From SAR202 cluster bacterium (lineage in GTDB: Bacteria; Chloroflexota; Dehalococcoidia; Lucifugimonadales; VGZR01), in assembly GCA_016872515.1 (NCBI GenBank), contig VGZR01000001.1, positions 167,322-231,321 on the forward strand: a stretch of DNA of 64,000 nt, read 5' to 3'. Each line of letters begins with the position of its first letter. The first letter of the stretch is position 1. Positions 43,322 through 48,428 of the stretch are shown here, one piece after another. Under the pieces are notes generated by a model. It was not told the origin of the DNA. It was given only the letters and a program-made list of their open reading frames with translations, and made no database searches. The translations under genes were made by a program, and so were the position numbers.

Positions 43322-44728
43322 GTGATGACGATGCGGAGTGAGTTGCACTATTTGACGATTGGGCAGGCGGGGAGGCTGATCAAGGAGCGGAAGCTGTCGC
43401 CGGTGGAATTGACGCGGGTGATGCTGGAGCGCGTCGAGAAGATGGGCGGGACGCTGCAGACGTACATCACGCTGCTGCGGGATGAGGCGATGGCACAAGC
43501 GAAGGCGGCGGAGGCGGAGATACGGCGGGGGAACTATAGGGGGCCGCTGCACGGGATACCCATCGCGCTGAAGGACAACTACGACACCAAAGACGTGCGA
43601 ACCACCGCCGGGTCTCAGTTATTGAGGGATCATGTACCCATGGAGGATTCGGCGGTGGCGGCGCGGCTCAAGGCTGCGGGGGCGGTGCTGCTGGGGAAGC
43701 TGACGCTGACGGAGTTCGCGTGCGGCGGGCCGGACCAGACTTGCGGCTATCCGATCCCGCGCAACCCGTGGAACCTGGAGCATGGCGCGGGCGGGTCGAG
43801 CAACGGGTCGGCGGTGGCGGTGTCGGCGGGGCTGTGCATGGGGACGATGGCGACGTGCACGCGGGGGTCGATCCGGGCGCCGGCGATGTTCTGCAACGTC
43901 GTGGGGTTCAAGCCGACGTACGGGCGGGTGAGCCGCCATGGGGTCATCCCGCTGAGCTGGACGCTGGACCACTGCGGGCCGATCACAGCGACGGTGGAGG
44001 ACGCGGCGATCATGCTGCGTGCGGTGGCGGGCTGGGACCCGGCTGACCCGACGAGCAGCCACGCGCCGGCGCCGGACTACGCAGGGGAGCTGCGGACGGA
44101 CATCAAGGGTCTGAAGATCGGGGTGCCGAGGCACTTCTTCTTCCCGGCCCGGCCGGATGTGCAGCGGGAGCCGCTGGCAATCGCAGAGGCGGCGCTGCGG
44201 AAGCTGGAAGAGCTGGGCGCGCACGTGGAGGAGACGCGGATCCCCGAGCTGGAGTACTCGGACGCGGCGGCGCTGGTGATCCTGTTAGGGGAGGGGTACG
44301 CGTACCACCAGTGGAACCTGAAGGCGAAGCCGGAGGGGTACGGTGTGGTGAACCGGGCGGAGTTCCGGCTGGCGAGCCTGTTCACGATGAGCGACTACGT
44401 GCAAGCGCAGCGGGCGCGGAACGCGCTGAAGCGGGGGTATGCTAAGGCGCTGCAGCGGTACGACCTGATCGTGTCGCCGACGTTCGCCATCGTGGCGCCG
44501 CGGTACGATGCGCCGCCGGGGATGGCGACGACGAAAATGCCGAGCTTCACGGGGCCGTATAACCTGGCGGGGCTGCCTGCGATCTCGGTGCCTGCCGGGT
44601 TCACGGCGAAGGGGCTGCCGTCGGGGATCCAGCTGGCGGGCAGGCCGTTCGACGAGACGACGGTGCTGCGGGCGGCGTACACGTACGAGCAGGCGACGGA
44701 GTGGCACAAACGGCGGCCGCCGCTGTAG
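43322..44728 (+). CDS. amidase-signature enzyme (GatA-like amidase)
   Basis: GPLHGIPIALKDNYDT...GGSSNGSAVAVSAG. 468 aa. Confidence 0.9.
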   Translation: MMTMRSELHYLTIGQAGRLIKERKLSPVELTRVMLERVEKMGGTLQTYITLLRDEAMAQAKAAEAEIRRGNYRGPLHGIPIALKDNYDTKDVRTTAGSQLLRDHVPMEDSAVAARLKAAGAVLLGKLTLTEFACGGPDQTCGYPIPRNPWNLEHGAGGSSNGSAVAVSAGLCMGTMATCTRGSIRAPAMFCNVVGFKPTYGRVSRHGVIPLSWTLDHCGPITATVEDAAIMLRAVAGWDPADPTSSHAPAPDYAGELRTDIKGLKIGVPRHFFFPARPDVQREPLAIAEAALRKLEELGAHVEETRIPELEYSDAAALVILLGEGYAYHQWNLKAKPEGYGVVNRAEFRLASLFTMSDYVQAQRARNALKRGYAKALQRYDLIVSPTFAIVAPRYDAPPGMATTKMPSFTGPYNLAGLPAISVPAGFTAKGLPSGIQLAGRPFDETTVLRAAYTYEQATEWHKRRPPL

Positions 44729-44739
44729 GCCGACGTGAC

Positions 44740-44794
44740 GGGGAACTCCTTTTGTCAAAAAGAAGTCCCGCAGACCCCTCAAGAAAACTTGGAG
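44740..44794. repeat. family-F repeat copy
   Basis: GGGGAACTCCTTTT-GTCA-AAAAGAAGTCCC plus GCAGACCCCTCAAGAAAACTTGGAG. Compare 48480-48535. Confidence 0.6.
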
Positions 44795-44795
44795 C

Positions 44796-44840
44796 ATGAG
44801 CAGCGGGGTGGGCCGCTCGACGGCCCACCCCGCTGCTCAT
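44796..44840. terminator. long perfect hairpin between the convergent amidase and VOC genes
   Basis: ATGAGCAGCGGGGTGGGCCG-CTCGA-CGGCCCACCCCGCTGCTCAT (20 bp stem), followed by ATTTCG. Confidence 0.5.
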
Positions 44841-44906
44841 ATTTCGAGTCTTCTTAGGGAGCTATGAGAGTTGCTGTCGCCGGGAAGGAGTCCTCTACTC
44901 AGCGAT

Positions 44907-45266
44907 CTAGGGGGTGAGTTGCATGAGCTGGAGGAGGTTGCCGTCGGGGTCGGAGAAGGTGGCGATCCAGCCGCCCCACTTTTCCTGGCCAGGCTTGCGG
45001 ATGAAGGGGATACCCTTGGCGACGAGCGCCGCGTGGGCGGCATGGATGTCGGCGACGCCGAGGTTGACCATGATGCGGTGTGGGTCTGCGCTCTGACCTT
45101 TGACTTCGGAGTGGGGGACGATGCTGAGGCGCATGCTTTCCCAGGCGAAGGAGACGATATGGGGTTTGACGGAGTGGGGCGTCAGGCCGAGGGTGTCGCG
45201 GTAGAAGGCGGAGAGCCTTTGGAGGTTATCGGTGCCGATGAGGATGCCGACGACGCCGGTTATCAT
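44907..45266 (-). CDS. VOC/glyoxalase-family protein
   Basis: 119 aa. FYRDTLGL...FSDPDGNLLQLMQ. Confidence 0.8.
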   Translation of the reverse strand: MITGVVGILIGTDNLQRLSAFYRDTLGLTPHSVKPHIVSFAWESMRLSIVPHSEVKGQSADPHRIMVNLGVADIHAAHAALVAKGIPFIRKPGQEKWGGWIATFSDPDGNLLQLMQLTP

Positions 45267-45343
45267 GAATACACCTCACGGTTGGGAACTGGGAGTTGGA
45301 TTTTACAGGGTACTTCCCTCATTGTCTCGACCCCAAAGGCAGG

Positions 45344-45410
45344 TCTCACCCCTACCTCTTCGGCCCGCAGCGTGCCGAAGGTCTTCCCTCCTCAAGGGGG
45401 AGGAGGAAGA
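45344..45410. repeat. mosaic repeat, T-B-A unit
   Basis: TCTCACCCCTACC-TCTTCGGC..GCCGAAGG-TCTTCCCTCC-TCAA-GGGGGAGGAGGAAG. Confidence 0.85.
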
Positions 45411-45488
45411 TTACCTCCCTGGTCCCTCTGCATCGGGTAGCGTGTTCCCAACAGGAGGATTCTGGGGAAATCGTGGACGGGGGTGGGT

Positions 45489-45516
45489 TTGCAAGGGGGC
45501 AGGCGGTAGGTATAAT
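45489..45516 (+). promoter_or_regulatory. near-consensus sigma-70 promoter with no downstream protein gene
   Basis: TTGCAA (45489-45494), 16 nt spacer, TATAAT (45511-45516). Confidence 0.55.
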
Positions 45517-45522
45517 GGCGGC

Positions 45523-45678
45523 AGAGACAAGGTGGTGGTGGATGACAGCTTACGGGGCGTCTCTAGAAAGGAGGGTTTCAGAATTGGATAGTACGCGTAG
45601 GGGGTGTCTCAGGTAGGTGTTCCTTGAGGCACCTTCCCTGTCATGGGCCCCGCCGAAAGGCGGGGCCCATTTGTTTTG
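45523..45678 (+). ncRNA. candidate small RNA (unclassified), bounded by a promoter and an intrinsic terminator
   Basis: About 155 nt between the TATAAT box and the terminator at 45643-45678. The only ATG-initiated reading frame is 24 codons. The 5' GACAAGGUG can pair with the 3' CACCUUCCCUGUC. No SRP, tRNA or tmRNA motifs seen. Confidence 0.45.
45643..45678 (+). terminator. intrinsic terminator
   Basis: ATGGGCCCCGCC-GAAA-GGCGGGGCCCAT followed by TTGTTTTG. Confidence 0.7.
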
Positions 45679-45715
45679 TGGGGAATGTTCGGCAGTTCGC
45701 GCCAGGCCGCTTCAG

Positions 45716-45849
45716 TTCTCCGTGTTGCTCAGGACAAGTTTCACCCCCACCTCTTTGGGCCGACTAGGTCGGCCCAAAGTTTCCTTCGCTTCGCTCAAGG
45801 ACAGGCTCTCCCCCCTCGAGGGGGAGGAGGAAGAACGCCCTCACCCCCT
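45716..45849. repeat. mosaic repeat cluster (E, T-B, E, A, T)
   Basis: TTCACCCCCACC-TCTTTGGGCCGAC-TAG-GTCGGCCCAAAG...CTCAAGGACAGGCTCTCCCCCC-TCGA-GGGGGAGGAGG...CCCTCACCCCC. Confidence 0.85.
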
Positions 45850-45857
45850 TCCCCAAG

Positions 45858-47216
45858 CTAGAGGAGGCCTTCTTTGCGGACTTCTAGGAAGGAGTGTTTC
45901 ATGGCTTCGATGACGAAGTCTATGTCCTTGGGGGTGTGGGCGGTGGAGATGTGGAACTGGTGGATGCCGGGGATGACGACGCCGTTGTTTAGGAGGTGCA
46001 TGAAGAAGGCATCGTCGGCTGCCTTGAGAGAGGGGTCTATGTCGCGGGCGCTCTGGATGGGGCCGCCGCGCTGGATGCGCATGAAGAACATGGAGAGGGC
46101 GCTCATGAGCTGGGCGGGGATCTCCTCGGACTGGCAGAATCGGTTGACCTCGTTGGCGAGCCTCATGCTCTGCTCGGCGAGGTACTTGTAGGACTCGGGA
46201 TGGTCGCGGAGGTAGGTGAGGGCGGCGGTTCCGGCGACCATGGAGATGGGGTTGCCGCCGAAGGTGCCTGCGGCGAAGACGCCGGGGAGGCGCGGGCCGC
46301 CGCGGGTGAAGGTCTCGGGGCTGGCGGCGCCGCGGGAGAAGACGTCCATGATGTCTGCGCGGCCGGCGATGGCGCCGATGGGCAGGCCGCCGCCCATGAC
46401 CTTGCCGTAGGTGGCGAGGTCGGGGGTGATGTCGAAGAGTTCCTGGGCACCGCCGTAGGCGAGGCGGAAGCCGGTGATGATCTCGTCCATGAGGAAGAGG
46501 ACGCCGGACTCGCGGCAGACCTCGCGCAGTTCTCGCAACCATTCGACGTGGTCGAGGCGGGGGTTGGAGCTCTGGACGGGCTCGATGAGGACGAGGGCGA
46601 GTTCGTCCTTGTGCGTGCGGATGAGGTCGAAGGCTTTCCTGCTGCGGTAGGGGAGCATGATGGTGTTCTGGAGGGTGGCCTTGGGGATGCCGTCGCCGAC
46701 GGTGTTGAAGGTGGGGGCGTCGTGGGGGCTGCCGGCGGCGGCGCGGACCATGACGTAGTCGTGGGCGCCGTGGTAGCCGCCGTCGAACATGGCGATCTTG
46801 TCGCGGCGTGTGTAGGCGCGCGCGGCGCGGATGGCGAACATGGTGGCCTCGGTGCCGGTGTTGCAGAACTCGACCTTGTCGGCGCAGGGGACGGCCTCGA
46901 CGATGAGGCGGGCGAGATGCTCTTGGTAGGGGTTGTGGAGCGCCCACTGGAAGCCGCGCTCGGCGGCGTCTTTGACGGCGTCCACGACGACGCCGGGGGC
47001 ATGGCCGAGGATGTGTGGGCCGAAGCCGAGGGCGAGGTCTATGTACTCATTGCCGTCCACGTCGGTGACGCGGGAGCCCCTTGACTCGCGGATGTAGATG
47101 GGGTAGGGCATGGCGAGGGTGCCGACCGCGAGCTGGCCGAGCACTTCGAGGCTGCGTTCGTGAGCGCGTTTGGAGCCTGGGGTCTTTCGTTCGATCTCGG
47201 CGCGGACGTTGCTCAT
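45858..47216 (-). CDS. class-III PLP aminotransferase, GSA-aminomutase-like (paralogue of 1050-2387)
   Basis: ATG 47216 after AGGAGG. CNTGTEATMFAIRAARAYT...LMDEIITGFR...GTFGGNPISMVAG. Confidence 0.85.
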   Translation of the reverse strand: MSNVRAEIERKTPGSKRAHERSLEVLGQLAVGTLAMPYPIYIRESRGSRVTDVDGNEYIDLALGFGPHILGHAPGVVVDAVKDAAERGFQWALHNPYQEHLARLIVEAVPCADKVEFCNTGTEATMFAIRAARAYTRRDKIAMFDGGYHGAHDYVMVRAAAGSPHDAPTFNTVGDGIPKATLQNTIMLPYRSRKAFDLIRTHKDELALVLIEPVQSSNPRLDHVEWLRELREVCRESGVLFLMDEIITGFRLAYGGAQELFDITPDLATYGKVMGGGLPIGAIAGRADIMDVFSRGAASPETFTRGGPRLPGVFAAGTFGGNPISMVAGTAALTYLRDHPESYKYLAEQSMRLANEVNRFCQSEEIPAQLMSALSMFFMRIQRGGPIQSARDIDPSLKAADDAFFMHLLNNGVVIPGIHQFHISTAHTPKDIDFVIEAMKHSFLEVRKEGLL

Positions 47217-47475: not shown

Positions 47476-48428
47476 CTATGGCTTGTTTTCGAAGAAGCGG
47501 CGGGGGTTGTCCACGGTAATCTGGGTGATGGTCTTGTCCGGAACGCCCAACCCCTTGAGGCGGGGCAGACCTTTGCGAGTGATGAAGAGGAAGCTGTCGG
47601 GGTTGTGAGTCATGAAAGCTTTTTGCTGCTTGGGGCCGATGATGCCTGGATAGACGCACCAGTCGTGGCCGAGGAGGATGCGGTGCGCCCAGCCTGCGTC
47701 TATGAGGCGCTTGATGGTGCCGGCGCGCTGGGTCCATGAGCGCGTGCCTGGGGTGACGTCGCCGAGGAAGGTCCTGTCGAGGCCGACCCAGGCGCTCTTC
47801 TTCATGAGACCGGCGACGTCGGCGGTATCGTTGCTGTGGCCGATGTACACCTGGTTGAGGTTGAGCTTCTCGCTCTGGAAGATGCGGAGCTGCTGGTCGC
47901 CGACGCGCTCGGGCGCCCAGGTGTGGCAGGAGATGGGGACGCCGGTCTTCTTGGCAGCGCGGGCGGCAGCGCGGAGGATGATTTCGCCCTCGGGGGTGAC
48001 GCCGCCCCTGTCGGTGGCGACCTTGATGATGCCGGCCTTGATGCCGGTGCCCTCGATGCCCTCCTTGATCTCGCGGGTGAAGAGGGCGGCGATGTCGTCA
48101 ACGTTGGCCTGCCAGAAGGCGCGGGGGATGTCGAGCAACATGCCTGTGCAGGCGATGATGTTCATGCCGCTGCGGCGGGAGACTTCGCGGACGAGGCGGA
48201 CGTCGCGTCCGAGGTCAAGGGTGGTGAGTCCACGATGGTGTCCACGCCCCCGGCCTTGGCCTCGCGGAGGATGCGGACGGCGTTGGCGACGATGGTGTTT
48301 CGGGGGCCGATGAAATCGTGATAGACGTGGCGGATGCCTGCGGAGGAGACGGCGACATGCTCGTAGGAGAGGGTGAAGCCGAGGGCCTTGGTGTCGAGGG
48401 GGCCGAGGACGGAGTTGATGCGGGCCAC
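47476..48428 (-). pseudogene. phosphotriesterase-family hydrolase interrupted by a -1 frameshift
   Basis: ORF 48162-48428 (..GVDTIVDS) and ORF 47476-48165 are consecutive parts. The downstream frame read upstream gives TTLDLGRDVRLVREVSRRSGMNIIACTG, the family-typical continuation. The lesion lies near 48225-48232. Confidence 0.7.

Follow-up and report, generated by a model that had tools for sequence, protein, structure and literature searches.

The small RNA gene and its distribution

The window analysed here is a 64,000-nt stretch of the genome of a SAR202 cluster bacterium (Chloroflexota, Dehalococcoidia; contig VGZR01000001.1, positions 167,322 to 231,321), and all coordinates refer to it unless a contig or locus is named. 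At 45489-45678 the window holds a compact unit in which a promoter and an intrinsic terminator enclose two RNA hairpins, an extended Shine-Dalgarno (SD) sequence and a mini open reading frame (mini-ORF). The unit is almost certainly a genuine conserved small RNA (sRNA) gene and not a chance pairing of signals. Its features are as follows.

45489..45494, plus strand: -35 hexamer TTGCAA (consensus scan)
45511..45516, plus strand: -10 hexamer TATAAT (consensus scan)
45523..45678, plus strand: predicted transcript of ~156 nt (promoter and terminator geometry, homologue boundaries)
45523..45564, plus strand: 5' hairpin, with helix P1 formed by AGAGAC (45523-45528) and GUCUCU (45559-45564) (RNAalifold, covariation)
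45563..45574, plus strand: extended SD sequence CUAGAAAGGAGG, the complement of the 16S rRNA 3' tail CCUCCUUUCUAG (sequence comparison)
45584..45616, plus strand: putative mini-ORF LDSTRRGCLR*, which opens with UUG (the initiator, decoded as Met), continues for 9 sense codons and stops at UAG (comparison)
45600..45636, plus strand: 3' hairpin (helix A), 45600-45613 paired with 45623-45636 around the loop UAGGUGUUC at 45614-45622 (covariation)
45615..45634, plus strand: helix B, an alternative pairing of AGGUGUU (45615-45621) with GGCACCU (45628-45634) (complementarity across homologues)
45643..45678, plus strand: intrinsic terminator with a 12-bp stem, a GAAA loop and the tail UUGUUUUG (consensus scan)

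The promoter and terminator had been proposed in an earlier sequence-only reading of this DNA, and a consensus scan recovered both. The promoter, TTGCAA-16-TATAAT at 45489-45516, matches the consensus at 10 of 12 positions; 3 promoter-like sites occur in the region against 0.4 expected from shuffles. The terminator stem (45643-45670) has 12 pairs, 10 of them G-C, closed by GAAA and followed by TTGTTTTG. The transcript start is placed ~7 nt past the -10 hexamer and the end within the U-tract. RNA folding of a 154-nt stretch gives -66 kcal/mol, a z-score of -3.4 relative to shuffles. No plausible protein gene follows on the plus strand, and the next gene (45858-47216) was confirmed to lie on the minus strand. 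The unit is single copy in its own 2.28-Mb genome (1 BLAST hit) and does not belong to a many-copy genomic repeat, whereas its flanks give 28 and 4 hits, in line with the earlier statement that repeats lie on both sides of a unit that is not itself one. The repeat modules, at window positions 45290-45480 and 45690-45857, leave the unit untouched and widen the spacer between it and the upstream VOC-family gene to 222 nt, compared with roughly 50-150 nt in relatives.

BLASTN comparison, which had been suggested along with that reading, found conserved copies of 69-78% identity in 13 of 41 relatives, each from a different family of the same order. A covariance model built from these 13 copies matched 179 of 401 sampled genomes of the order with scores of 80-125 bits, nearly always once per genome. 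In a phylum-wide sample the model matched its own genome and two other loci (L015 and L016), both of which are false positives that correspond to the 3' end of metK and to coding sequence. Outside the order, a class-wide sample gave only weak matches, and two of these (L276 and L281) are coding sequence. An exact-pattern scan of 185,579 species genomes returned at least 119 loci; among the matches listed, every title names a Dehalococcoidia, Chloroflexota or SAR202-cluster metagenome-assembled genome (MAG). A further 35 copies lie on metagenome contigs, and several of those records are named marine metagenome.

The signals are conserved along with the unit. Of 134 distinct homologues, 130 have TATAAT at a constant spacing from AAGGAG, mostly 53-54 nt upstream of it, and the best -35 element in the same set typically matches only 3-4 of 6 positions. 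Downstream of the 3' hairpin, 119 of 135 distinct homologues have a U-tailed, terminator-like hairpin; its sequence is free to differ from one homologue to another and shows no conservation. The common layout begins with TATAAT, ~7 nt, a GAGAC...GUCUC hairpin, YRGAAAGGAGG, a short spacer and UUGGAUAGUAGUA, and ends with the hairpin GGAGGUG-NN-CCAGG-UAGGUGUUC-CCUGG-NN-CACCUCC and a terminator of its own. The proposal of an independently promoted and terminated small RNA gene is upheld, and the gene falls into no described class.

Searches against known RNA classes were negative. None of the 4227 models of Rfam 15, which include 6S, SRP, RNase P, tmRNA and Chloroflexi motifs, matched at the gathering score in the 64-kb window or in 11 homologous loci, and E-value mode gave only sub-threshold matches to terminator hairpins (the best was BjrC68, 29 bits against a gathering score of 39). 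ARAGORN found no tRNA or tmRNA in 44500-46500. The sequence-only reading had called for the Rfam scan and had itself seen no resemblance by eye to SRP RNA, 6S, tmRNA, RNase P or a tRNA. 6S RNA forms a rod of ~180 nt, held together by a closing stem, in which a large central bubble imitates an open promoter. The unit had no match to RF00013 at E <= 10, and its consensus consists of two separate hairpins joined by ~35 unpaired nt, with no conserved closing stem. Two protein-dependent classes were also rejected. The AGU-AGU-AGU-AGG-AGG run is ARN-like and a U-tail is present, as in an Hfq class-II sRNA, but among 41 relatives a single one has Hfq (PF17209), and the own genome gave no match. A sponge of the CsrB/RsmZ type lacks its partner, since CsrA (PF02599) was found in 0 of 41 genomes; control genomes were positive for both proteins. 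The ARN-like and GGA-like motifs therefore cannot act through Hfq or CsrA. Full-text literature searches gave no paper on small RNAs of Dehalococcoidia or SAR202-labelled lineages. These results identify a genuine, previously undescribed sRNA family that is widespread in one order-level clade of uncultured Dehalococcoidia.

RNA structure, Shine-Dalgarno sequence and mini-ORF

Covariation analysis, another check put forward with the first reading, supports the 5' and 3' hairpins. Across 68 distinct sequences the two-hairpin structure has 95.1% of its cells paired, and 14 of 18 pairs have changed on both sides; 0 of 500 shuffles reach these values, and slid controls give 37-59%. All 6 pairs of P1 have changed on both sides, with 94.7% of cells paired in the same 68 sequences. 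The interior of the 5' hairpin is purine-rich (GGUGGUGGUGGAUGACAG); it is kept in most lineages and lost in some (L218, L233). Helix A, scored in a gapless alignment, has 95.3% of cells paired and compensatory changes in 7 of 12 pairs (slid controls, 40-58%), with the consensus GGAGGUG..CCAGG / CCUGG..CACCUCC. At the own locus the 5' arm GGGGGUG lies within the mini-ORF, and the 3' arm CACCUUC is anti-SD-like. The helices are rich in G-U and poor in A-C pairs (L233 has three G-U pairs in a row), which indicates, in agreement with the promoter and terminator, that the RNA is the plus strand; a minus-strand function as an intergenic element between the flanking phosphotriesterase-family and VOC genes was rejected on the same grounds.

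Helix B is mutually exclusive with helix A and arises because the loop segment AGGUGUU is complementary to AACACCU of the 3' arm. In 64 sequences 447 of 448 cells are compatible with this pairing, compared with 42-66% in slid controls, and the only lineages with a changed loop (G to A) carry the matching C to U in the arm (3 compensatory cells). These data lend modest support to helix B, and the 3' hairpin may be bistable. Two pairings named in the sequence-only reading did not survive comparison. Both are complementary in the own sequence and neither is conserved: its closing stem, between the predicted 5' end and the segment just before the terminator, has 59% of cells paired across homologues and its internal helix of CUUACG with CGUAGG has 65%, and neither value exceeds those of the shuffled and slid controls.

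The segment between the hairpins is (C)UAGAAAGGAGG, which is complementary over 10-12 nt to the 16S rRNA 3' tail. The 16S rRNA ends in ...GGAUCACCUCCUUUCUAGGGAG in the own genome and in 24 relatives, and the whole of its 10-nt tail CCUCCUUUCU is complementary to the invariant AGAAAGGAGG (sometimes GGAAAGGAGG); in the own genome the complementarity is 12 nt long (45563-45574). GAAAGGAGG was invariant in the first 13 homologues. The motif is rare, with 31 sites in the 2.28-Mb genome, 14 of which lie in one repeated element. The spacer between the SD and the UUG ranges from 6 to 11 nt in 1-nt steps among 137 distinct copies and is 9 nt at the own locus.

Two side observations concern these sequences. 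The 8 nt that follow CCUCCUUUCU (AGGGAG...) are invariant in 25 genomes of 14 genera (C4:43816 in the own genome and loci L167-L194), so the conserved block reaches into the trailer that is normally removed. The sequence CCCAACGAAAGGAGGCCCACTGTCACTGATCTACT is repeated 14 times in the own genome, mostly within ~90 nt of contig ends (for example C8:87, C12:85, C13:64, C14:87 and C17:43, also C20:5201 and 5553), and probably marks the end of an insertion element present in many copies, at which the assembly breaks.

The mini-ORF downstream of the SD has a narrowly fixed length. The distance from UUG to the stop is 27, 30 or 33 nt only, all 137 distinct copies are open in frame 0, and the UAG stop codon consists of the first three bases of the 3' hairpin loop. 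Of 13 divergent members, most of them AT-rich, all 13 are open in frame 0, against 5 in frame +1 and none in frame +2. Locus L221 has lost the GGAUAGUAGUA block yet keeps the UUG, 10 codons and UAG; L233 has a changed loop and retains the stop in place as UAA; and the distant copy L274 has AUG, 10 codons, UAA and a different 3' hairpin. The mini-ORF uses codons that are rare for a genome of 64% G+C (AGU makes up 6% of Ser codons and AGG 9% of Arg codons). The listed peptides have 9-11 residues and end in R, G, S, K, E, W or Q (F or L in divergent copies). Their C-terminal half varies wherever the stem covaries and follows the RNA pairing, not amino-acid conservation. Should the frame be translated, what has been conserved is its reading and not its product.

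The 24-codon ATG frame noted in the earlier reading does read as written, and its last 10 codons are the conserved mini-ORF. The longer frame is specific to this genome and was rejected: its ATG falls in the variable interior of the 5' hairpin, where relatives have GAUGA, GAAGA, GCCGA or GUUGA. The earlier reading, which gave that frame a poor SD, overlooked the most conserved feature of the locus, a perfect extended SD separated by 9 nt from an invariant UUG.

Genomic neighbourhood

Three protein genes lie next to the unit, all on the minus strand.

44907..45266, minus strand: VOC/glyoxalase-family gene, 119 aa, divergent from the sRNA (Pfam PF00903)
45858..47216, minus strand: class-III aminotransferase gene (HemL-like), a lineage-specific insertion outside the unit (Pfam PF00202)
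47476..48165, minus strand: phosphotriesterase-family (PTE) gene, convergent with the sRNA (Pfam PF02126)

Neighbours were counted at 127 distinct loci by tblastn of defined proteins, as clustering of stop-to-stop open reading frames was swamped by shadow frames and repeat-encoded peptides. The VOC gene is immediately upstream and divergent in 92 of the 127 loci, divergent lineages included. The PTE gene is convergent in 66, mostly ~50-250 nt downstream of the hairpin loop, and a convergent CinA gene lies downstream in 29. The aminotransferase gene adjoins the sRNA at the own locus only (1/127), where its insertion displaced PTE; repeat modules were also inserted after the sRNA there. The conserved order is rplM-rpsI, (amidase), VOC(-), sRNA(+), PTE(-), CinA-like(-). 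Macro-synteny with rplM-rpsI was seen in L217, L221 and L229 (and at 16 of the 127 loci) and corresponds to about 40-45.5 kb of the window; it places the sRNA just beyond a ribosomal-protein cluster in many lineages.

The association with these neighbours has exceptions. In the f27 lineage (L233, L235, L237) the sRNA is preceded by the 3' end of a tRNA gene and followed by CinA; at L218 no VOC match adjoins the sRNA. VOC orthologs are kept in 13 sRNA-negative relatives, where no divergent sRNA was found beside the VOC gene; one hairpin-like match falls in a coding region. A co-directional downstream gene (an ABC transporter) occurs in a few AT-rich lineages only, and none is consistent, which makes a classical leader function unlikely. 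At L269 (G021:C3:173143-173412) the VOC ortholog beside the sRNA matches residues 1-90 only and contains an in-frame TGA; it is possibly a pseudogene.

Function and outlying relatives

The anatomy of the RNA is unusual in that a maximal SD, an invariant UUG and a fixed-length frame ending in a possibly bistable loop are combined with no downstream gene. We favour, with middling confidence drawn from comparative sequence data, a ribosome-loaded mini-ORF RNA in which translation remodels the 3' hairpin. A 30S subunit would dock on the maximal SD, initiate at the UUG and translate the mini-ORF. The ten-codon run would unwind the 5' arm of the 3' hairpin, the freed 3' arm could then re-pair with the loop to form helix B, and termination would occur at the UAG in the loop. 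Selection would act on ribosome loading, not on the peptide, and loading would determine which conformation the RNA adopts and probably how stable it is. The free-standing ribosome-loading variant of this proposal, in which a whole clade of uncultured Dehalococcoidia that are abundant and slow-growing would keep a dedicated RNA for the capture of 30S subunits by the strongest possible SD coupled with a deliberately weak UUG, is put forward tentatively.

Several observations weigh against translation-driven remodelling. The accessibility of the SD is moderate, with a median unpaired probability of 0.47 in single-sequence folding. The UUG is never replaced by AUG or GUG in the core clade, and one and the same search pattern gave 35 metagenome copies with UUG against 0 with AUG or GUG; such invariance would be surprising in a plain start codon and might instead stem from a constraint on the RNA itself. 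All 3-nt indels fall within or beside the (AGU)n triplet repeat, where replication slippage could produce them without a reading frame. RNA-constrained positions coincide with the start, the stop and most codons of the frame, which prevents a clean separation of coding selection from RNA selection. The shuffle control for helix B is itself 99.2% paired, a value that is uninformative because the loop is almost unvarying.

A purely non-coding RNA that acts in trans by base pairing, with the open frame as a by-product of composition, is a doubtful alternative. The purine-rich strand (AGAAAGGAGG...UUGGAUAGUAGUA) or the loop (GGUAGGUGUUC) would seed on C/U-rich targets, or CACCUCC would mask the ribosome-binding sites of mRNAs. 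Such an RNA would account for a loop and a UUGGAUAGUAGUA block conserved beyond the needs of a 10-residue peptide, for a UUG that is not exchanged for AUG or GUG, and for pairs that are conserved while the C-terminal half of the peptide is not, and slippage in (AGU)n can supply the 3-nt indels. However, nothing stood out in a search of the own genome for sites complementary to the loop and UUGGAUAGUAGUA, the hosts are without Hfq, and L221 lost the would-be seed block yet kept the UUG, the frame length and the stop. Base pairing also leaves unexplained a 10-nt perfect SD at a canonical distance from the start in every lineage, and why frame 0 alone stays open in AT-rich members. The same SD is the core of a decoy hypothesis, in which it and the GGAGG-like motifs bind the 3' tail of mature or precursor 16S rRNA without productive translation, so that the RNA would hold idle 30S subunits or shield or time 16S 3' end maturation. 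The complementarity of 10-12 nt, or up to 15 nt with the first bases of the 16S trailer, is far above that of normal mRNAs; several SD-like purine tracts occur per molecule (5' hairpin interior, SD, 5' arm and loop); UUG is a weak start codon; and the gene lies a few kb from a ribosomal-protein cluster, right after rplM-rpsI and VOC in compact genomes. A decoy is nevertheless unlikely, as complementarity past the 10-nt core is not conserved (UCUCGAG and UCUUCAG variants occur), a pure decoy needs no fixed-length open frame with a stop, and stoichiometric titration of ribosomes would require a very abundant RNA. The 16S tail is invariant, so there is nothing for the flank of the SD to covary with.

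Regulation in cis, either by a leader or attenuator that reads antisense into PTE or by an antisense or promoter-interference partner of VOC, draws on the strong synteny with both genes (92 and 66 of the 127 loci), which extends to divergent lineages. In compact genomes the covariance-model match lies only ~46 nt from the VOC start codon, so the VOC and sRNA promoters must overlap there, and a short frame followed by alternative helices and a terminator is the anatomy of an attenuator. We consider a cis role very unlikely, because no co-directional downstream gene is consistent, an unrelated aminotransferase gene lies between the sRNA and PTE in this genome, the f27 lineage has other neighbours, L218 lacks an adjacent VOC match, 13 sRNA-negative relatives retain VOC orthologs, and no antiterminator pairing with the non-conserved terminator stems is evident. 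Least probable, and barely credible, is an RNA that sequesters a protein in the manner of CsrB or 6S or forms part of a ribonucleoprotein. The invariant loop and the repeated GGA and ARN-like motifs (AGU-AGU-AGU-AGG-AGG) would suit such a function, but the host proteins were all but missing (CsrA 0/41, Hfq 1/41 relatives, controls positive), no 6S model matched even at E <= 10, and two separate hairpins are not a rod with a central bubble.

If ribosome loading is the function, some bacteria keep stand-alone RNAs whose job is to be loaded. Through the 10-codon run into a bistable hairpin, ribosome availability would then become a conformational or stability signal, and the RNA would sense or buffer spare translational capacity in bacteria that have neither Hfq nor CsrA. 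If the hypothesis fails, the RNA is an ordinary new sRNA family. The Dehalococcoidia, including SAR202-labelled lineages, are known almost solely from metagenomes. They gain a well-defined, order-wide regulatory RNA family with a covariation-supported structure, which can be annotated in hundreds of MAGs because the covariance model is ready.

A close known parallel is mccA, the first gene of the microcin C operon of Escherichia coli. It is a very short open reading frame (7 codons) on a short, abundant transcript with an intrinsic terminator just downstream. A ribosome bound to this mini-ORF is reported to govern how the RNA folds and terminates and to render it very stable (PMC4231749). The two differ in that mccA is followed by mccB-E on the same strand, whereas the sRNA has no co-directional downstream gene, and in that the mccA peptide is the substrate of MccB, whereas the sRNA frame has 9-11 codons and a non-conserved C-terminal half. 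An mccA-type precursor, a heptapeptide ending in Asn next to a gene for an MccB-type adenylyltransferase, was considered and rejected; no listed peptide ends in Asn and no mccB-like gene follows.

Leader-peptide attenuators of the trp/his type (transcription) or the erm/cat type (translation) regulate a downstream gene on the same strand. The sRNA resembles them in its SD, a short frame valued for its position and not its product, alternative helices and a terminator; an SD-preceded short frame with mutually exclusive helices is present, with the support for helix B being modest. The sRNA unit is free-standing, however, and has no regulated gene downstream on the same strand. Its downstream genes are convergent or unrelated (PTE, CinA and, in this genome, the aminotransferase are all convergent), and neither alternative helix involves the terminator stem. 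Dual-function sRNAs such as SgrS/SgrT, RNAIII/hld and SR1/SR1P encode peptides of 26-43 residues that are conserved in sequence and function. Like them, the present RNA comes from an independent gene, bounded by a promoter and a terminator of its own, that also carries a ribosome-binding site and a small open reading frame, here of putative translation; the frame of 9-11 codons differs from theirs in tracking the RNA pairing. Two-codon and other minigenes, such as bar of phage lambda, likewise place a strong SD and a tiny frame on a small RNA for which ribosome capture has been proposed, and differ in sequence, length (10 versus 2-6 codons), structure and host clade.

Three groups of loci lie at or beyond the edge of the family. 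The divergent copy at L274:1501-1680 (G897:C235) has AUG for UUG, ten codons (MSRSRQRCSL) and a UAA stop, with a different small hairpin in the 3' position and a 21-bp terminator. Its order is represented by 7 genomes and the copy occurs in one of them only, so the contig may be mis-binned. In the variant shared by loci L275, L277 and L279 (three genomes of genus g72, from another order of the class), the 5' hairpin is kept, the SD is degenerate (AGAAAGACGG) and an 11-codon frame runs from UUG to UAG. No terminator is obvious, and the variant may be a relative in decay or one put to a new use. At L278:1-130 (G1022:C210), CUGGAAAGGAGG precedes an AUG by 5 nt, and a strong terminator falls within the frame. 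This small unit is not an evident homologue and may be a mini-gene or sRNA in its own right.

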